Source of the DNA: a virus
Lineage: Duplodnaviria > Heunggongvirae > Uroviricota > Caudoviricetes > Demerecviridae
Virus record (IMG/VR): IMGVR_UViG_2974655256_000001
Span: 84,530 to 111,601 of that record
DNA length: 27,072 bases
Direction: 5' to 3' (one strand)
In this document: positions 16,528-27,029 of the stretch, one piece after another
How the letters are laid out: each line of letters opens with the position of its first letter
Position numbering within the stretch: the first letter of the stretch is position 1
Made by a program: the position numbers and the translations under genes
The notes under the pieces: model-generated
Seen by the model: the letters and a program-made list of their open reading frames with translations, nothing else
The model's database searches: none
Told to the model about the DNA's origin: nothing

Positions 16528-19377
16528 TTAAATAGATGCCCAATCCACAGATTGCTCGCCATTATCACCTTCTGCTCTTATACGGAAGCGTAACTTCCTA
16601 TTAATACCTAGAGCATCCTCGTTATGAAGGGCATAGTCTGCCTTATTGTATATCAGTAGATAATCGTAGACATACTGATCTTCAATTCGTACACTTCTTA
16701 ATAAACGATCTAGGTTATCGTAGATTTCGAGAGTGTAGAAGATTCCATCAATAATATCTTCTTCTGGAATTCTATCCCAGGCCAACTTAACGTCTGGTCC
16801 TACAAACTCCGATGCATCTCCTGAAGCTGTGTTAGTAACCCTGAAATTACTAACGACGCTTAAGTTTTTAGCAGAGTTAAGTTCTACCGATAGTGTTACA
16901 GGAGAACTTCGTCTACCATTAATATCTACAGCTCTAATCTCAAAGACTGCTAAACCAGCAGGTTCTCCAATAATTTCTTGGATCATTCGTAGATTTGGAT
17001 TAGTTTCTAGTTGCTGTACGATATAAGGATCAGCATGTCCAGAATGAACGATGGAGTAATAAACAACGTTATTAGTTAAGCTAGGAAGCCAAGATAGCTC
17101 ACCATTCTTACCAATAGATCCTACTTGTCCACCCGGTGTTGGTGTGTACATAAAGTCTCTAGGAGGCAGTACGTTATTACTAACATCAGGGATATCGTTA
17201 CCACTATTATCAACCTGCTCGGAGTTAATGAATACATCCTCACCATACTCTTGCAGTGTAATATTAATCTTACCTTCTCTAGAGTTTTCAACTTCATCAA
17301 CTAGGAAGTATTTCTTATCCCAACCATAACGACCATATGTAAAAGCAACCGGATCGTTAGGCTCAATACCTATGAAATGATATGGTAATGAGAATGTGAG
17401 AGTTCGTGAGTAACGAGATTTTTTCAGTTCTCTATCTGCAAAGCTACGTGCAGTATAATAGTTAGTGATGTTTGCAAAAGAAAGCTGAAGTTTTTTATCT
17501 AATCCTTTATCTTGTTCTTTAAATATAGAGTTAAAGAATGTAATGGAGTTAGTTTTCCAGCTTAATGCAGGGTCTAATATGGAGGCTTGTACTGAGTTGA
17601 ACTTATTTCTGCCCGTAGTATCTGACAGCTCCAGATCACCGTAGGTATCTAAGAAGTCAATCTCTAGTGGAGTATTTGAGAACTTCTCAACAGTTATCCT
17701 ATACTGTCCAGATAAGTTGTTGATAGCACCACCGTAAGACTCTATTAATCCCTGCACGTTTTTAAATACTGACTCAGAGGTATCGAGAATAGTATTCATT
17801 TGAACTATTTGTCTATTCTCTCCTACAGCATCAGTCCATCCAACGTATCTCCAGTAGGGTTGCCAAGAAACCTGATAGGATTCATCAATGATATCCAGGA
17901 TAGCTGCTTCTTGAATAAGTTGCTGGAGAGGGAACTGATCAATAGTGATATTAGCACCGTAGCGGTCAGAGGTTAGGTAGTCCAGAGTTTGCCAGATACC
18001 ATTTAAGCTAGTCTTATCAGCAGTTACTCTACCATCTGAATGATAGATCTTAATCTTCTTACCTTGAACTTCAGCGCTAACTTCTGGAATTTCTGTTCTG
18101 TTTTCATTAATAGTAAAGCGAACAATAGCATAAGCAGTATCTAACAGTTTATAACGAGAGTCCCAGTATTCCGGGCCATTCTCATTCATGTTCTGTAAAT
18201 AGAAACCTTTCTCTTTTGCAATGTTAACTAGAACATCCGCAGCAGATTGATCTGCTTTACCATGATAAGTCCATATACGGATATCGCCATTACCATCATT
18301 ATACTTATATTCCTGTCCATGAACAGAAGGTTCAGAGCTTGGCTGGCCTGAAGCAATACGTTGCATGGTATCACCAGCTACTTTCTTAGTACCAAAGCAA
18401 GTACGAGACTTACTATCATTAGGATCAATACAGATCATTGGTACATCACCAAAGTAGAAATCTAGGAATCCATCAATCTCACCCTCACAGAAAGCGTATA
18501 CTACATATACGATATTAGGGTTATGCAGTTCAGTATCTGCGAATACTGGGATTCCAGGAATTTTCTGAACTCCGTACACTACTGGCAGGAATTTAGCAGC
18601 TAAGTTAAAATCAAGATCTACTTCCTTAGTTACAGTCTCATAGTATTTCTTTAGGCTATAGCTTCTAGAAAGACCAAATAACTTTTTCTTAGATTGTAAC
18701 TTATAACGTTCTTCCTGAACCTGATACTTAGCAAGAATAGAGATACTCTTGTTAGCGTGGAAGAACCCGTAGTCCTCTTGATATTCAGGTCGCTTAGCAC
18801 CATTAGACGGAACTAATTGTCCGGCAACAATCTCAAGCCCTCTATGGTCAGCATCATCTGTGAAACGTCCATTTACCCTATCAAAGTCATAGAATTGGTT
18901 TGAACAGTTCCATGTAATAACGGATGTACTAACTCCCGAAGTACCAATGTTATCTTTAATACCACCACCAGTGATTTTACCACGGAAGTAAAGTAAAGGA
19001 CCATTAGTGTCTGGATCTACAGGAAGAATGTTACCTTCTTCATCAATAACCGCTTGATGGATTGAGATAGATCTATCTAGGAAGGATACACCATTTTGGA
19101 CTAGTTTTAATACTTCATCCTCAGCAGTACCTGTGATAGTAAAAGAAAGGCTACCAATGGAAAGTTTTCTATTTTGTTTATGTGTTGTTATAGACTTAAC
19201 TTTACCGGATGTGTAAAGAATACCATTATAAATTACATCCCTAAAATAGTCTGTAAGATAAATGTATGCAGAACTTGATCCGGTAGAGCTTGGCAATTCA
19301 AGAGTAATAAGGCATGCAGTTTTTATTTTATTATTAGTTCTTAAATACTCTCTTGCACTGTCAAGAATTTTCTTCAT
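16528..19377 (-). CDS. pb3: Baseplate hub protein pb3
   Basis: 949 aa; hub motif LPVVYG and C-terminal FnIII-like repeats; T5 synteny and length as recalled. Confidence 0.9.
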   Translation of the reverse strand: MKKILDSAREYLRTNNKIKTACLITLELPSSTGSSSAYIYLTDYFRDVIYNGILYTSGKVKSITTHKQNRKLSIGSLSFTITGTAEDEVLKLVQNGVSFLDRSISIHQAVIDEEGNILPVDPDTNGPLLYFRGKITGGGIKDNIGTSGVSTSVITWNCSNQFYDFDRVNGRFTDDADHRGLEIVAGQLVPSNGAKRPEYQEDYGFFHANKSISILAKYQVQEERYKLQSKKKLFGLSRSYSLKKYYETVTKEVDLDFNLAAKFLPVVYGVQKIPGIPVFADTELHNPNIVYVVYAFCEGEIDGFLDFYFGDVPMICIDPNDSKSRTCFGTKKVAGDTMQRIASGQPSSEPSVHGQEYKYNDGNGDIRIWTYHGKADQSAADVLVNIAKEKGFYLQNMNENGPEYWDSRYKLLDTAYAIVRFTINENRTEIPEVSAEVQGKKIKIYHSDGRVTADKTSLNGIWQTLDYLTSDRYGANITIDQFPLQQLIQEAAILDIIDESYQVSWQPYWRYVGWTDAVGENRQIVQMNTILDTSESVFKNVQGLIESYGGAINNLSGQYRITVEKFSNTPLEIDFLDTYGDLELSDTTGRNKFNSVQASILDPALSWKTNSITFFNSIFKEQDKGLDKKLQLSFANITNYYTARSFADRELKKSRYSRTLTFSLPYHFIGIEPNDPVAFTYGRYGWDKKYFLVDEVENSREGKINITLQEYGEDVFINSEQVDNSGNDIPDVSNNVLPPRDFMYTPTPGGQVGSIGKNGELSWLPSLTNNVVYYSIVHSGHADPYIVQQLETNPNLRMIQEIIGEPAGLAVFEIRAVDINGRRSSPVTLSVELNSAKNLSVVSNFRVTNTASGDASEFVGPDVKLAWDRIPEEDIIDGIFYTLEIYDNLDRLLRSVRIEDQYVYDYLLIYNKADYALHNEDALGINRKLRFRIRAEGDNGEQSVDWASI

Positions 19378-20096: not shown

Positions 20097-23000
20097 TTAA
20101 GAATTACCAAGTGATTTCAGGGTGGTTCCATTCTCATTAAGAGCCTGTTCCACGGCATCCCTGAAAGCAGCACTATTGCTCGAAGCAAAATCTCGGAAGC
20201 TAGCCGCATCCATCGTACTGATGTTCAGCACAATAGGTCTACCCGATGTGCCTTTTGAAGATCCTTTGAGTTCATCAGTAGGGGTAGCCTTCATCGGAAC
20301 CATAGGAGTGATTACTTCGGTACCATGCTCACCCATCTGGTAACTAACTCCAGGATACATATTACCACCTTCTGCACGAGGTACGAAAGAGTTAGCATTA
20401 CCAATCCCTTGATCTCCTCGAATATAAGAAAGTTCACCTGCATTAGCCGACATAGAAACGTCTACATTCTTCTGGCGTTCTCCAAGAGTTAAGTAACCAG
20501 CTGTCTCAGCACCAGAGTCCCCAATAGAAGACATACCAGATGCAGAAGATGCTTGAGCAAGAGCCATAGCACCTGCTAAACCAGCCGCAACCATCAGAGG
20601 AATAGAGAATGGATACGGAACAGCTGTTGCTGCCTGCATCACCGCTACTGCCGTCTGGATAATGATTTGCTTCTTAGCTGCATCTTGCTGGATCTTGAGC
20701 TTTTCAGCCTCTAACTTCTTGATCTTAGCTTTAGATTGCTCAGATTTACCATCACGTTTCTGTTCTGCTGCAATAGCTGCATCAATAGCACTTACCTGTT
20801 GACCAACACTATACTGAATCATTGAAGATACAGTTTGCATACCAGCCGCTACTAGAGAGGTAGTATCCAGAGATCCTTGAGAGAACTGGATCATAGCATT
20901 AGTTAGGTTACCCATACTTTGTGCTACAGCAGTTGCTTCGGAGTTCAGTTCAGACAGCTTAGAAATAGCCTGGTCATAGGACGCCATTCTATTCTGCATA
21001 TCTGCGAAGTTTTTATCTTCTCCAGTTAATCCAGTAGTAGGAGTATAGGTAGCCCCTACAGCCGCACCTACAGAAGACTGCATTTCTGCATCGCGCTGTA
21101 CTCTTAAAGCTGCGAGCTGGGCTCTAGTTTCTGCTAGCTTTTTATTATACTCTAACTGAGCAGCAGCATTCCCTAAAGTTTTTTGCTTAAGGTCTTCGAA
21201 TAGCTGGATTTGCTCCTTGATATGTTCCGCAGCTCCCATTAAAGGATTTGCAGTAAACTTCCTTTGTTGCTCCTCTTCCCTGCCAGCAGCCATTTCCCTT
21301 TGCTGATCCTGACGGAATTTCCAGATTTCACGTTCAATTTGTGCCTGAGCACGTCTTGATTGTTCAGCTTCCTTATGCTTATCAACCTGTTTGGAGTACC
21401 ATTCATACTTTTCTTTCTCGACAGTCAGTTCAAGATTCAACTGAGCTAAACGATATTGAGTATCTGTCATAGTACGGTTATTCAGGAGAGCAATTTCACG
21501 ATCAACACCAAGAATCTTATCGGTATAGTCCTTAACCTTCTTCTGAGCTTCCATACCCTGGTTAGTAATCTTGATACGTTCTAACTGAATCTTAGCTATT
21601 TCACCTTCGATTGCTTTGTTACCTTTGTTAGTTTCTAGGACACGCTTAAGAGCTGCTTCCTGTTCTTCTAACTGTTGGATTTCCAGACGTCTACCAGCTT
21701 CCTGTGCTTTCTCTTTGTCCTTAGTCTGGTTGTATACTTCTGCAATCTTTTGCTGAACTTCTAACTGATTCTTAGTCTCATTACCAGTTAATTTTACGTA
21801 ACCAGCAAGAGCTTGTGAAGCAGTCTTCATCTCACTAAGAGTATTATACCCTAAATTCAGGCTCTTAACATACTCATCAGCATTTTTACCAGTACCCGCG
21901 GACAGAGACTCAATAGTCTTAATCGTATCTGATAAGGATGCACTAGTTTTAGCCGCAGTATTAGTATTCTGAGCAATGTTCTGGATATCGTTAGCTAAGT
22001 CACTGGCAGTTTTCTTGGCTTGGTCATACGCTTTCTGCTGTTCTGTCAATCCTTTCAGAGTTGCAGAGTTAAAGTCATAAACCGCATCCGGGTCATTTGC
22101 ATCTTTCTGTAGGTTAATTTGCTTCTGGAATTCTGTATTAGATTTGGCTGCGGCAGCACCAGCAGCTTGGTATGCCGATTTCCATGCATTAAGATTGCCA
22201 GTTGAATCCTCTACTTCCTTATCAAGACGCTCTACCTGGAGAGCTAATGCAGCAGTATCTGCAATGAATTTCTGGTTTTCTTCAGAAGATCCTATGCGAA
22301 CTCCTCCTACTTCAAAACCTCCTGCAGCTAACCCTACCGGTGCACCTTGAGCAACTAAACGAATAGCCCCTGCTGTAGATGCATCTGCTTGCTGCATACG
22401 CTTATCTAGATCAGCTTTTAACTTATTACGCTTTTCTAGAGATTCTTTGTACATATCAAGAGCTTTATTATATCCTTCCTCAGAAGCGGAAAGACTTAAA
22501 GCTACAGCACCAACGTTAGTTGGGTCAATCTGACGGTTAGTTTCTTCCTGTGCTCTAGCAGCAGAGGCCGAGATAGATGCTTGAGAAGTATAGAATACTG
22601 CGTTGATAGAATCAATTACTGGCCCTAAATACTTAGCAGCAGCCTGTTGAACCTTTCTCAGTGCAGCATCAGCATTAGCAGCAAACTGTTCCCAGGGGGT
22701 TGCACGAAGTACATCATCAAGATAGCCGAAACGTTTAGTAGATTCAGCGATAACTGCGTTAGCATATGCTTGTTGCTTCTGGAAAGTAGAGAGACTATTA
22801 ACGTTATATGTAATACCTGTGTTAGCAGCATTTAACTGTTTAACGTAGTCTGCGTAAGCATCGTTAAGACGAATAGTAACACCAAGTTCGTCCAGAAGTT
22901 CGATTTCTTGTTTAGATACGCCCTTGATTACACGGTTAAGTGCATCAGTCATATCAACACCAAGAACAGCAGCAGCACGACGAGCTACTAGACCAAATTT

Positions 23001-23804
23001 ATTAAGTTGTTCAGCATCGAATCCATATGCAGAAGCAGAGGATGCCTGTCTCATTGCTTCTTCGAAGGAGATTGCATAACCAGCAGCCTCTTGTAGAGAT
23101 CTAGCTAGAGTTTGTACAGGAGTACCTGTTTGAGTACCAACAATAGTACCAAACTTCTCAAGACGGTTTAACTGGTCACCCATCTTAAGTTGTTCGAATG
23201 CAGATTGTAGAACGAACACGTTAGACGCGATAGCAGCATACATAAGAGGTAAACTACCACCCACTTTAGCCATTGCTGCGAAGTCACGAGTAGCACCACG
23301 TGCTGAACCAGAAGTATTACCAATTGCACGACTAGCACGTCCTGCGGAGGTAGTTGTATCGTTAAAGCCTCTAGCAGTATTGCCTAGTGCTCGGTTAGTA
23401 TCATATAATCTATCTTGAACTTTTTCGGTTGCAGCAGCTACATCGTTACCCATAGCCTTAACAGATTTACCCACATGTGTAAATCCAGACTCTAGCTTCT
23501 CAGATACTTCGATCATAGCAAGGGCAAGATCATCTAGCTTATCACCAATACCTTCAATGGATTTAGTGATACCAGCCATACCTCTACTAGCCTGCATTTT
23601 AGTTAGACTTTTAGCTGCTCTATCCGCCGCCCTCTCAATGGAGTAAAGAGTTTTGGGCATTTTTCCTAACTGCTCATTAGTCAGTTCGGAAGCGGCAGCA
23701 GCATTTTCTAACGCATCGGAAACGTTCTCAATAGATTTTGCAGTACGGGTTGCCCCTTTCTGCTTTACATCTATAAGTAGTTCTCGTATTAGCTTATCAG
23801 TCAT
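20097..23804 (-). CDS. pb2: Tape measure protein pb2
   Basis: 1235 aa; Ala/Gln/Lys-rich helical; hydrophobic segments (LPLMYAAIASNVFVL; IPLMVAAGLAGAMALA); C-terminal TMP motif RAEGG..Y.MGEHGTE; follows the chaperone ORFs. Confidence 0.93.
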   Translation of the reverse strand: MTDKLIRELLIDVKQKGATRTAKSIENVSDALENAAAASELTNEQLGKMPKTLYSIERAADRAAKSLTKMQASRGMAGITKSIEGIGDKLDDLALAMIEVSEKLESGFTHVGKSVKAMGNDVAAATEKVQDRLYDTNRALGNTARGFNDTTTSAGRASRAIGNTSGSARGATRDFAAMAKVGGSLPLMYAAIASNVFVLQSAFEQLKMGDQLNRLEKFGTIVGTQTGTPVQTLARSLQEAAGYAISFEEAMRQASSASAYGFDAEQLNKFGLVARRAAAVLGVDMTDALNRVIKGVSKQEIELLDELGVTIRLNDAYADYVKQLNAANTGITYNVNSLSTFQKQQAYANAVIAESTKRFGYLDDVLRATPWEQFAANADAALRKVQQAAAKYLGPVIDSINAVFYTSQASISASAARAQEETNRQIDPTNVGAVALSLSASEEGYNKALDMYKESLEKRNKLKADLDKRMQQADASTAGAIRLVAQGAPVGLAAGGFEVGGVRIGSSEENQKFIADTAALALQVERLDKEVEDSTGNLNAWKSAYQAAGAAAAKSNTEFQKQINLQKDANDPDAVYDFNSATLKGLTEQQKAYDQAKKTASDLANDIQNIAQNTNTAAKTSASLSDTIKTIESLSAGTGKNADEYVKSLNLGYNTLSEMKTASQALAGYVKLTGNETKNQLEVQQKIAEVYNQTKDKEKAQEAGRRLEIQQLEEQEAALKRVLETNKGNKAIEGEIAKIQLERIKITNQGMEAQKKVKDYTDKILGVDREIALLNNRTMTDTQYRLAQLNLELTVEKEKYEWYSKQVDKHKEAEQSRRAQAQIEREIWKFRQDQQREMAAGREEEQQRKFTANPLMGAAEHIKEQIQLFEDLKQKTLGNAAAQLEYNKKLAETRAQLAALRVQRDAEMQSSVGAAVGATYTPTTGLTGEDKNFADMQNRMASYDQAISKLSELNSEATAVAQSMGNLTNAMIQFSQGSLDTTSLVAAGMQTVSSMIQYSVGQQVSAIDAAIAAEQKRDGKSEQSKAKIKKLEAEKLKIQQDAAKKQIIIQTAVAVMQAATAVPYPFSIPLMVAAGLAGAMALAQASSASGMSSIGDSGAETAGYLTLGERQKNVDVSMSANAGELSYIRGDQGIGNANSFVPRAEGGNMYPGVSYQMGEHGTEVITPMVPMKATPTDELKGSSKGTSGRPIVLNISTMDAASFRDFASSNSAAFRDAVEQALNENGTTLKSLGNS

Positions 23805-23818
23805 TTATTTTTCCCAAT

Positions 23819-23849
23819 AAAAAAGGCTCTGGGCAAATCACCCAGAGCC
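23819..23849 (-). terminator. Rho-independent terminator immediately upstream of pb2
   Basis: GGCTCTGGG-TGATTTG-CCCAGAGCC followed by TTTTTT on the - strand, 14 nt before the pb2 ATG. Confidence 0.87.
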
Positions 23850-23884: not shown

Positions 23885-24253
23885 TTACTGAGCTCGAGAT
23901 CTAGCATGCGGTTTAATGTTCGGAGTACGACCATTAGGTTTACTATGCTTCTCGGCTCTCTTACGAGCTGCATCTACAGCTTTCGAATCAAATATATTGA
24001 TGATGTGTAGAACAAACTCTTTCTCTATAGGATCAGTAATCCCATAGATATCAAATAAAACACCTAGTGCACTTTTGTCTTTTCCTATAAAGATAGGAAA
24101 GTCACCTGGTATGAAACAGTCAATAAGACTGTTATAAATATTCATACTAGTAGATACAATAGGTGGAAAATCTTCGAGTTCAACAGGCATTGCCTTAGGA
24201 TCAGGTTCAATACCTAGTGACTCACAAAGCATTAAATATTGTTGTTTTGTCAT
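23885..24253 (-). CDS. Tail assembly chaperone, downstream (T-like) ORF; probably made as a frameshift fusion
   Basis: Lies between the G-like ORF and the TMP gene. LGIEPDP...P...F pattern. No SD before the ATG at 24253, and the frame is open upstream to 24340. Confidence 0.75.
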   Translation of the reverse strand: MTKQQYLMLCESLGIEPDPKAMPVELEDFPPIVSTSMNIYNSLIDCFIPGDFPIFIGKDKSALGVLFDIYGITDPIEKEFVLHIINIFDSKAVDAARKRAEKHSKPNGRTPNIKPHARSRAQ

Positions 24254-24314
24254 TTTAGATGCTGAGGATTTAATGCATTTATCTGCAAAATCGGCAACAG
24301 CATCTAGTAACTGC

Positions 24315-24719
24315 TTACGCTTTTGAGCTACGAAAAGTGTCTAAGTGGAACACTGTCTGGTTGATCCAAGAATCAAACGCAGCAGAGTTCTGCATAAGCA
24401 TGATAGCATTATCGCGGCTAAATGGAACTTCAGTAGTAGGATCAGCTTCAGTTTCGATAAGCATCAGCTTCTCAACATCTCCAATCGTCAAGCCAGTCCA
24501 GCCAGCAATTGCAGTATCAACGAAAGCTTCAATAAACTTATCATCATCCTGAACCTGAATCATAGTACCGTTAACCCACTCATCACGCTTAGCGGAAGAG
24601 ATAACACGCTTAGATGCAGCACGAGACATGTAGTTCAGTTGCAGCTTGAAGTTAGGCATACCTGGGTAAGCCAGCTCAATAGTACGAGTTTCAAGGGTAA
24701 TATCTTTTAAATTGATCAT
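24315..24719 (-). CDS. Tail assembly chaperone, upstream (G-like) ORF
   Basis: 134 aa, acidic; IAGWTGL pattern typical of tail chaperones; GGAGA SD; canonical position. Confidence 0.82.
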   Translation of the reverse strand: MINLKDITLETRTIELAYPGMPNFKLQLNYMSRAASKRVISSAKRDEWVNGTMIQVQDDDKFIEAFVDTAIAGWTGLTIGDVEKLMLIETEADPTTEVPFSRDNAIMLMQNSAAFDSWINQTVFHLDTFRSSKA

Positions 24720-25615
24720 TTCTTTATTTCTCCAAAGAAGTCGATTCTTACCGGATCAGAGTCTGCAGTAGGGATTACATCCCATTCAACTCTGTATATA
24801 TCCGAGAATTGTAGGCGTTTTGTTATACGTGCTGAAGGAAAATCAATCGAAATATGTTCATTTCTGATGGTTAATGGTATGTCAGTTTCGGGTTCAATAT
24901 TATAAAATATATCACCAGCAAATCGCTTGGTGTAGTAAAATGCAATTGTTGCCGAAGCATTCATTTCATTAACATAAGCTCTCTTATTATTATATATTTT
25001 GTTTATGTCAAATACGCTTTTATCTTCTCTCCAAGAACATTGTTGCTGGAATGACATAGAAGCGGATAAAAGAGCTGGTAAAACATTACTGTTGGTAGAT
25101 ACTCTAGGAGGACTATATGACATAACTTCACCCTGAACAATAGAACCAGCAGGAGTAAAAGTAGACACCTCAGAGAACTTACCAGATTCAATTCCTACGT
25201 TTAGGATAGGAACGCTTTTATCTAGAGAAAAGTCTACAGTAGATACATAGCAATTCTCAAAGTATACACAGTTATTATCTTTATTAACTATGTATATATT
25301 AAACATTGTTGGCTCAATATTTGTACTATAAAGTGGTAGTAAGAATGTGTTACCCTCTCGGTCAAAGCCCATCCATTCAAAGAAGTTAGCTTCAGTAAGG
25401 GTATTACTAAAATTTATAGCCAGTGATATTGAAGATGGAGTTTGTGCATTAATAATAGAGTCAGCATAGTTGGTTCTACGATGGATAGTCCTACGAAGAG
25501 TTTTAAATTCCTCATAGGACGTATTGATATCGTAATTTGACAGGGCATCAAAATGATAAGCCCTGCCATCATACTCAACTATAACTTTTGACTCCCTCAT
25601 TAGAGAGTAGTACAT
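24716..25615 (-). CDS. Baseplate tube protein p140 (minor tail protein)
   Basis: 299 aa directly after pb6; T5 synteny; MYYSLMRESKV N-terminus as recalled for p140. Confidence 0.82.
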   Translation of the reverse strand: MYYSLMRESKVIVEYDGRAYHFDALSNYDINTSYEEFKTLRRTIHRRTNYADSIINAQTPSSISLAINFSNTLTEANFFEWMGFDREGNTFLLPLYSTNIEPTMFNIYIVNKDNNCVYFENCYVSTVDFSLDKSVPILNVGIESGKFSEVSTFTPAGSIVQGEVMSYSPPRVSTNSNVLPALLSASMSFQQQCSWREDKSVFDINKIYNNKRAYVNEMNASATIAFYYTKRFAGDIFYNIEPETDIPLTIRNEHISIDFPSARITKRLQFSDIYRVEWDVIPTADSDPVRIDFFGEIKK

Positions 25616-25619
25616 TTAA

Positions 25620-27029
25620 TTAGCCACCAGAAGCAGTAACTGTAATGCTCTTAGTACCTTCTACACCAGAACCATCTTTAGCTACGGCTTTCACAGTAAC
25701 TGCACCAGTCTTAGAAGCATCAGCGGTCAGTAAACCAGAAGTTGCATCAATAGTAGCAGCAGTACCGGAGGAAATAGACCAAGTTACTTCCTTATTAGTA
25801 GCTTCAGCAGGCAAAACATCTACAGTCATCTGAAGAGTTGCACTATTATCAACGGAAGCTGCATCACCCGCGGATTTAACAGTAATACCTGTTACCTTAA
25901 CCGGAGCTGCTTTACCACCGTCACCAGTTGCAATCAGATTTGCAATAGTAGTTTTGGTGTACTTATTAGAGAAACCAAGATAACCTTCATCACCAGTATC
26001 CAGATCAGTAGGAATTGCTTTGAACTCTACAGAAGTACCAAGTACATCGTCAGTCTCAATAGTTGGGATGTTAACGTGAGCTTGCTTAGCAACTAGAACA
26101 GCGGCTGGGCGCTCATCATCATATTCACCGCCAAGTACTAGAGCGATTTCGAAACGGTTAACTACCTTCAGGGTCTTAATCAGATCTTTATACAGATCCA
26201 TAGAACCTAGAGCTTTATCGTTAAGATAAGCGGTCAGAGAACCAGTTAATTCGAATGCACCAGTAAATGAACCGATTGCGATGTTAACACGGGACATGAC
26301 GTTAGGAGTCAGATATGTGATGTTGTTGTTAATTGTAAAGCTACCACCAGTGATCGGAATGTCATATGCCTTACCAGTATCCATATCCTTAATTTTGAGG
26401 ATAGTCAGTTTGTTCTTGATGTAAGAACCCTGGATAGTCATGTAAGTTTCATCATCAATACCCACAGTATCAGGATCAAAGGGAGCAGCGTCCAGAGGGA
26501 TCAGCTGGTTACCATTACCTGACCAAGTTACACGACCGATATCTTCGATATCAACGTTTACTTCAGCCTGGTTGATCTGACAGGAATCGATGTAGCTCCA
26601 TGCTTTATCAGTAAGGATGTAAATATGTAGCATTGCCAGCTCGTGGTATGCGTTATCCTTAAAGTTAACCATGAAGTTAGTTTCGTTAGTGTGAGCACCT
26701 GTATCACCATCTAGGTTGATAGGCTTACCACTAGAAAGAGCATGCCACAGCATGTAGTCCGGAACGATCTGCTTACTAGTAGTCTTATCTAAGTAAGGCA
26801 GGATGTAAGTAGAGAAACTCCACTCAGCTGCGTTCAGGGAGTCGTTGAAACGTTTTGAACCACGAGTTGGACGCGGACCAGCTTCGTTAACAGTAATATC
26901 GGTTGAGTTACTGTCCTGACCCCAAGAAATATCATCTTGAACTAGAATCTCTTGCGTGTTGGTCTTATCGTGACCAGTCTTAACCGTAGACACGAAGATT
27001 CGAGTATTACGTAATAGTTGTAAAGACAT
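25620..27029 (-). CDS. pb6: Major tail tube protein pb6 with C-terminal Ig-like (Big_2) domain
   Basis: MSLQLLRNTRIFVSTV start, AGGAGA SD, 469 aa. C-terminal V.V.GITV...T.QMTV.V.PA.ATNK.VTWS Ig pattern. Confidence 0.95.
   Translation of the reverse strand: MSLQLLRNTRIFVSTVKTGHDKTNTQEILVQDDISWGQDSNSTDITVNEAGPRPTRGSKRFNDSLNAAEWSFSTYILPYLDKTTSKQIVPDYMLWHALSSGKPINLDGDTGAHTNETNFMVNFKDNAYHELAMLHIYILTDKAWSYIDSCQINQAEVNVDIEDIGRVTWSGNGNQLIPLDAAPFDPDTVGIDDETYMTIQGSYIKNKLTILKIKDMDTGKAYDIPITGGSFTINNNITYLTPNVMSRVNIAIGSFTGAFELTGSLTAYLNDKALGSMDLYKDLIKTLKVVNRFEIALVLGGEYDDERPAAVLVAKQAHVNIPTIETDDVLGTSVEFKAIPTDLDTGDEGYLGFSNKYTKTTIANLIATGDGGKAAPVKVTGITVKSAGDAASVDNSATLQMTVDVLPAEATNKEVTWSISSGTAATIDATSGLLTADASKTGAVTVKAVAKDGSGVEGTKSITVTASGG

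Follow-up and report, generated by a model that had tools for sequence, protein, structure and literature searches.

The gpG/gpGT pair of phage lambda and the G-T frameshift conserved among long-tailed phages have been described in a line of work (Levin 1993; Xu 2004, 2013, 2014) that we cite as presented in PMC5009743. There the frameshift is treated as widespread, with -1, -2, and +1 forms on record, and lambda is known to require a G:GT ratio near 30:1. Chaperone shifts other than -1 include those of Mu (-2) and halovirus HSTV-2 (+1, proposed) and the forward shifts annotated in SEA-PHAGES genomes (PMC5009743, PMC10885494). For T5 and Sugarland, PMC6256483 reports no predicted frameshift signal, citing Zivanovic 2014. 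Sites of the form UUU_Ynn are especially prone to +1 shifting in bacteria, with no adjacent stop, and E. coli argI and Yersinia YopN-TyeA are the described examples (PMC5009743). Among eukaryotic viruses, influenza A PA-X shifts at a low level without a stimulator.

The window examined here, meaning the whole stretch of 27,072 nucleotides that was analyzed, makes up the final 27 kb of a genome of 111,601 bases. Profile searches locate a T5-type tail operon on its minus strand, and its source is a T5-like phage of the Demerecviridae. All features described below lie on this strand, in the order pb6 homolog, p140, G, T, terminator, and tape measure, which places G and T between the tail-tube and tape-measure genes. 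The gene for the major tail tube protein (pb6 homolog; 25620–27029; phrog_3575), the presumed partner of the T domain, is followed by that for the baseplate tube protein p140 (24716–25615; PF23779, phrog_3889), whose stop overlaps the start of G. The G gene (TAC-N; 24315–24719), a homolog of T5.143, has a good Shine-Dalgarno (SD) sequence and encodes a short tail assembly chaperone of 134 aa that matches the tail assembly chaperone family phrog_313 (E 4e-35). The T domain (TAC-C; 23885–24331), a homolog of T5.142 that would be read after the shift, matches phrog_3914 (E 2e-57) as well as positions 170–255 of phrog_313. An intrinsic terminator (23815–23849), also present in the T5 annotation, lies between T and the gene for the tape measure protein (pb2 homolog; 20097–23804; phrog_3779, Pfam TMP_N and TMP_C), the presumed client of G and GT. 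The T tail of this terminator continues without a gap into the tape measure gene's weak ribosome site (23849–23804). In four Vibrio Demerecviridae (L030, L031, L034, and L037), the annotated gene 3' of T is only about 250 aa rather than a 1200-aa tape measure protein; in these phages the tape measure gene may be divided, or a further gene may precede it.

The G protein of the window is identical in many Salmonella and Escherichia T5-like phages. Altogether, G and T are matched by about 900 phage records, these being deposited T5-family genomes, and a best match of the fusion is found in phage Stitch, an Epseptimavirus. The T5 counterparts, T5.143 and T5.142, are annotated as two genes, also named p139 and p138. 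As in lambda, the locus combines a position between the tail tube and tape measure genes with a short G, an overlapping and apparently start-less T, and a fusion of about 270 aa; as with gpG/gpGT, both G and T have chaperone profile and fold matches.

The arrangement of reading frames is as an earlier note, made from this DNA alone, had described it. The G frame (24719–24315) ends ACT TTT CGT AGC TCA AAA GCG TAA, and the downstream frame is +1 to it and open from 24340, running 151 codons to a stop at 23887–23885. Upstream, this +1 frame is closed by a TAG (24341–24343), and many relatives have a stop at the same spot; the shift therefore has to happen 3' of it. Counting the G stop codon, the frames overlap by 26 nt (23 nt before the stop), and the only synonymous +1 re-pairing sites in this interval are TTT-C (24335–24332) and AAA-G (24323–24320). 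The -1 frame meets a TAG two codons past the Phe codon and another three codons past the G stop, and an open -1 frame with an X_XXY_YYZ heptamer was absent from the window and from all Demerecviridae checked, in which -1 is likewise closed. The note had also argued that the fusion could arise only by a +1 shift. Frame logic goes less far, since a -2 shift reaches the same frame; it is the comparative evidence presented below that supports +1 as the direction.

Read through a +1 shift, the fusion comes to 277 aa with a computed mass of 31.1 kDa, in line with the predicted size. It matches phrog_313 over positions 12–255 of 258 in a single stretch (E 3e-53), and fold searches match each of its halves to annotated tape measure chaperones. 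A search for fused G+T proteins in a collection of 5.8 billion returned none, which carries little weight because the fusion of Salmonella phage Shivani is in UniProt. In a single NCBI record, the 94-aa protein P0011, the end of G passes into the T frame at an AAAA run, probably through an assembly or sequencing deletion. Considering the layout together with the conservation of UUU_C, the coding character of the sequence bridging G to the annotated T start, and the lack of a conserved start for T, we find it highly probable that this T5-like phage makes its G/GT tail chaperones from the locus by programmed +1 frameshifting at UUU_C.

The putative shift site occupies positions 24332–24335, with Phe UUU re-pairing to UUC in the P site; the A-site codon is CGT in the zero frame (24332–24330) and GTA in the new frame (24331–24329). 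Conservation was assessed in loci from cultured Demerecviridae of Klebsiella, Serratia, Providencia, Proteus, Yersinia, Vibrio, and Aeromonas and from metagenomes. G was aligned, the codon at the invariant C-terminal Phe was read, and lineages were cut at 70% identity, which gave 21 lineages whose T is in the +1 frame and whose G is 28–64% identical to that of the window. The homologous Phe codon is TTT followed by C in all 21, T5 itself included. The three bases preceding TTT vary freely across these lineages, and the next base is invariably C. Elsewhere in the same genes, pooled Phe codons number 136 TTT and 107 TTC, from which 21 TTT in 21 has a chance probability of about 5e-6, an approximate figure as the lineages are related. 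In six other Phe-rich columns of G, both codons occur in roughly equal numbers (TTT:TTC 10:9, 10:7, 9:8, 5:9, 13:8, and 6:7) as against 21:0 at the site, which shows that there has been time enough for third positions to diverge.

The same tetranucleotide is disfavored in the rest of the genome. Across 66 long ORFs of the window genome, C follows TTT in 37 of 480 cases and TTC in 139 of 473 (P 1e-18), and Phe-Arg(CGN) is encoded with TTT in 4 of 31. The shift site is thus retained against a general trend, and the rarity of in-frame TTT-C is as expected if UUU_C is shift-prone. The invariant element is UUU_C and not the longer UUU_CGU that had been proposed: the codon after TTT may be CGT, CGA, CGC, CAC, CAG, or CCA. 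CGN predominates (CGT in the window, and 19 of the 21 lineage representatives). CAC (His), CAG (Gln), and CCA (Pro) also follow TTT in +1 loci, so Arg itself is not what selection keeps. In L034 and L091, G ends TTT CGT TAA, and within the resulting four-codon overlap no synonymous re-pairing other than TTT to TTC is available. From the Phe to a conserved T motif the distance is 22–28 codons, in frame every time, and the G stop falls 2 to 21 codons past the Phe, never immediately after it. The UCC that precedes the PA-X site is replaced by ACT in the window, and TCC occurs in only one of the 21 lineages.

The Aeromonas phages Akh-2 and AhSzw-1 (L033 and L036; Shenzhenvirus) have in-frame TAG codons in G, T, and neighboring tail genes, all of which are unannotated or fragmentary in the records and become fully open if TAG is read as Gln. 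Both retain a TTT-CGA site and the +1 layout. Recoding of TAG has been reported for Shenzhenvirus.

A Mu-like -2 shift within the overlap would reach the same frame and here yield a fusion of 278 aa. Such a shift bears on the one T5-like record in which G and T are already joined, CPT_Shivani132 of phage Shivani (GenBank KP143763; UniProt A0A0A7TXI3). Its joined CDS (18208–19039 of our locus L113, corresponding to KP143763.1 93207–94038) spans 832 nt and is listed at 277 aa, as fits -2 (277) and not +1 (276). In the window, the codon just ahead of the Phe could also re-pair synonymously after a -2 slip, from ACT to ACA. Against this reading, the ACT-to-ACA site recurs in 3 of the 21 lineages, and no -2 site is common to more than 3. 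The codon that tRNA-Phe would meet after slipping back two bases is CTT, ACT, AGT, CAT, GAT, TGT, CGT, or CCT, never a cognate one. The free variation before TTT and the constant C after it likewise point forward rather than back. We therefore regard a -2 shift as very improbable and consider that the Shivani join was probably drawn in the wrong direction. The Shivani paper (PMC4342426) does not mention the joined G+T, and nearly all other records inspected, T5 included, keep two genes.

Under the standard annotation, as for T5.142, T would instead be a separate gene started at the ATG at 24251–24253, with no fusion made. In addition to the two genes annotated in nearly all records, this reading can draw on an ATG at the same column in 10 of the 21 lineages. 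Nonetheless, in the other 11 the column holds ATA, CTA, GTA, TTC, CTT, GTT, or ATT, none of them taken as a start codon, and across the family it encodes Met, Ile, Leu, Val, or Phe, at 22–28 codons from the Phe of the shift site and in frame every time. The ATG at 24253 also lacks SD pairing, as the earlier note had pointed out (+1.2 kcal/mol, compared with -4.2 to -9.1 for six neighboring genes). Ahead of the aligned ATA or ATT, the Klebsiella phages L028 and L088 have a strong SD-like AGGAGG (about -11.7 kcal/mol) about 27 codons past the site, which could be counted in favor of a separate T. This AGGAGG codes for K-G-G in the T frame and may be incidental.

The T frame upstream of this ATG is itself constrained. 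In the bridge (24254–24331), we counted variable columns over the 61 nt from the G stop to the ATG in 21 distinct Markadamsvirinae sequences. Sorted by position in the +1 frame, 18 of 21 third positions vary, compared with 6 of 20 at the first position and 1 of 20 at the second. By this substitution pattern the bridge evolves as a +1-frame coding sequence, and in tblastn searches with the T frame, alignments to Klebsiella, Providencia, and Vibrio phages begin at its first residues. The helix that had been proposed for the bridge is predicted over residues 2–21 (pLDDT 88–90; AlphaFold2 with a T-frame alignment), and the last six residues form a loop instead. A coding bridge that aligns across the family counts against a separate T, which also leaves the TTT-C site unexplained. 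We accordingly give a separately initiated T hardly any credence, and the ATG at 24253 is, from its context and conservation, most likely an internal Met codon of GT.

A 9-bp RNA stem lies over the ribosome site that a separate T would use. Its 5' arm is at 24298–24306 and its 3' arm at 24256–24264, ending 2 nt before the ATG at 24253 (fold z -3.3). Among 19 Markadamsvirinae sequences, two of its pairs show compensatory change and 98.8% of cells are paired; the stem is not kept family-wide. It begins 29 nt past the first T of the shift site, a distance too far for the usual frameshift stimulator. One speculative role in Markadamsvirinae would be to hide the ATG at 24253 and suppress internal initiation. 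In the 100 nt after the site, no family-wide 3' RNA stimulator was found, with z values ranging from -3.6 to +1.2 and no common position. This counts against the +1 reading, in that no conserved stimulator accounts for sufficient fusion being made.

The second re-pairing site in the overlap, AAA-G (Lys; 24320–24323), near the G stop, would allow a cognate +1 slip from AAA to AAG in the window and its close relatives. AAA-G occurs at that codon in only 1 of the 21 lineage representatives. In 13 of the 21 neither AAA-G nor AAA-A is found in the overlap, AAA-G is scattered in the others, and in several lineages G stops upstream of its position. This site is therefore an exceedingly unlikely source of the fusion, and may act as a minor extra route in Markadamsvirinae only. 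Equally remote is the suggestion that RNA polymerase slips on the T run (TTTT at 24336–24333 in the window) and drops one U so that ordinary translation yields the fusion, since the run is merely three T in 16 of the 21 lineages, polymerase slippage leaves the invariant C unexplained, and productive transcriptional slippage normally needs runs of seven or more.

In the favored model, a +1 shift at UUU_C, most ribosomes would read G through to its TAA and release the 134-aa chaperone. In a minority, peptidyl-tRNA-Phe (anticodon GAA) would sit on UUU in the P site with CGU waiting in the A site. The tRNA would slip one base forward from UUU to UUC, exchanging a G:U wobble for a G:C pair, and GUA would be read next, continuing in the T frame to give the 277-aa GT with the junction D-T-F-V-A-Q. 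The slip, its P-site +1 nature, and its low rate (a few percent, if the lambda ratio near 30:1 is a guide) are all parts of this proposal, and at a ratio like that of lambda a low shift rate would suffice. The phage encodes tRNA-Phe(GAA), tRNA-Arg(ACG), and tRNA-Val(TAC) among 25 tRNA genes at 40.6–53.1 kb. By analogy with lambda, G and the G part of GT would coat the tape measure protein and T would recruit the tail tube protein.

More distant homologs place the opposite shift at the same codon. A profile search recovered 518 relatives, of which seven were chosen by the residue after the Phe and examined at the DNA level. Among the aligned proteins, 74 have Arg at this position, and most of the rest have Thr, Ser, Asn, or Gln. 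Of the seven selected homologs, three (Arg, Gln, and Pro) combine TTT-C with a +1 T frame and two (Thr and Asn) combine A_AAT_TTC with a -1 T frame; a -1 T frame also accompanies the A_AAT_TTT of L095 and L099. As A_AAT_TTY ends on the same Phe in these four -1 homologs, that codon is marked as the shift position. One Phe codon would thereby appear to be the position of the shift in both directions, with the same spacing to the T domain. In L111 (752–779) the site reads TTT CAG, T is in -1, and a canonical heptamer is missing; a single-tRNA -1 slip on TTTT may be at work. TTT-C is present in every +1 locus seen and is insufficient to call one, as L111 carries it too. L110 encodes Phe-Arg as TTC CGC and has a closed +1 frame; its G has an A_AAA_AAC heptamer at the end, on a contig too short to confirm T. 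A G+T tree, with one change at support 17/0, does not establish how many direction switches took place or in which order. On these comparisons we think it likely, with less assurance than for the window itself, that an essential tail protein is produced throughout the T5 family and in its environmental relatives by a four-base UUU_C shift that requires no conserved stimulator, and that within the wider chaperone family the shift has changed between +1 (UUU_C) and -1 (A_AAU_UUY) while staying on one Phe codon with the T-domain spacing kept.

Judged from the sequence comparisons, the locus is very probably the usual phage tail frameshift run in its less common direction. It reveals no new kind of system and is less new than proposed, given the Shivani join, the known shiftiness of UUU_Y in E. 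coli, and the +1 chaperone shifts proposed elsewhere. A description of the UUU_C site in the T5 family was not found in the literature searched, which was mostly without subscription papers. What the analysis provides is the closing of a small gap in a model phage, as T5 has been stated to have no predicted chaperone frameshift signal. In nearly all inspected records T is a separate gene and N-terminally truncated; the correct GT would be about 277 aa, a length that matters for work on T5 tail assembly and for engineering the tail length of laboratory phages. The site also represents a conserved, apparently functional use of UUU_C for +1 shifting on bacterial ribosomes and supplies a four-base signature for spotting missed chaperone frameshifts in other phages. 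If the switching between +1 and -1 is true, it gives a natural series, in a model phage, for asking what determines in which direction and how often bacterial ribosomes shift frame.

Set beside the known systems, the locus departs from lambda at the slip itself: lambda shifts -1 on a tandem heptamer, whereas here -1 is closed and the proposed slip is +1 on the single codon UUU_C. The cases of Mu, HSTV-2, and SEA-PHAGES likewise show that the direction of the G-T shift varies among phages; they concern other phages and, as far as the cited passages describe them, other sites. Two classes considered for the locus were set aside. For the Mu-type -2 class, the 21 lineages have no conserved run for re-pairing two bases back, and for the stop-adjacent +1 class (prfB, Listeria phage CCC_UGA), no stop occupies the A site at the shift. 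The Salmonella phage Shivani, itself T5-like, carries this G+T fusion at about 90% identity; its join implies -2 by length, and the record gives no site or evidence. The resemblance to UUU_CGN motifs, raised in the earlier note from PA-X and amalgaviruses, holds for the type of site and not for a restriction to eukaryotic viruses, as UUU_Ynn sites are also documented in bacteria (PMC5009743). As in PA-X of influenza A (UCC_UUU_CGU) and the Amalgaviridae, a P-site UUU would re-pair to UUC, usually with CGN next, with no adjacent stop and no evident stimulator. Those viruses use eukaryotic ribosomes; here the upstream UCC is unconserved and CGN is usual (19 of 21) and not required. Closest in decoding are argI and YopN-TyeA, which share the tetranucleotide class, the enterobacterial ribosome, and tRNA-Phe. 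In argI the shift is an error and in YopN-TyeA it gives a minor hybrid, whereas the present site has become fixed throughout a phage family, where by its conservation it probably makes an essential product.
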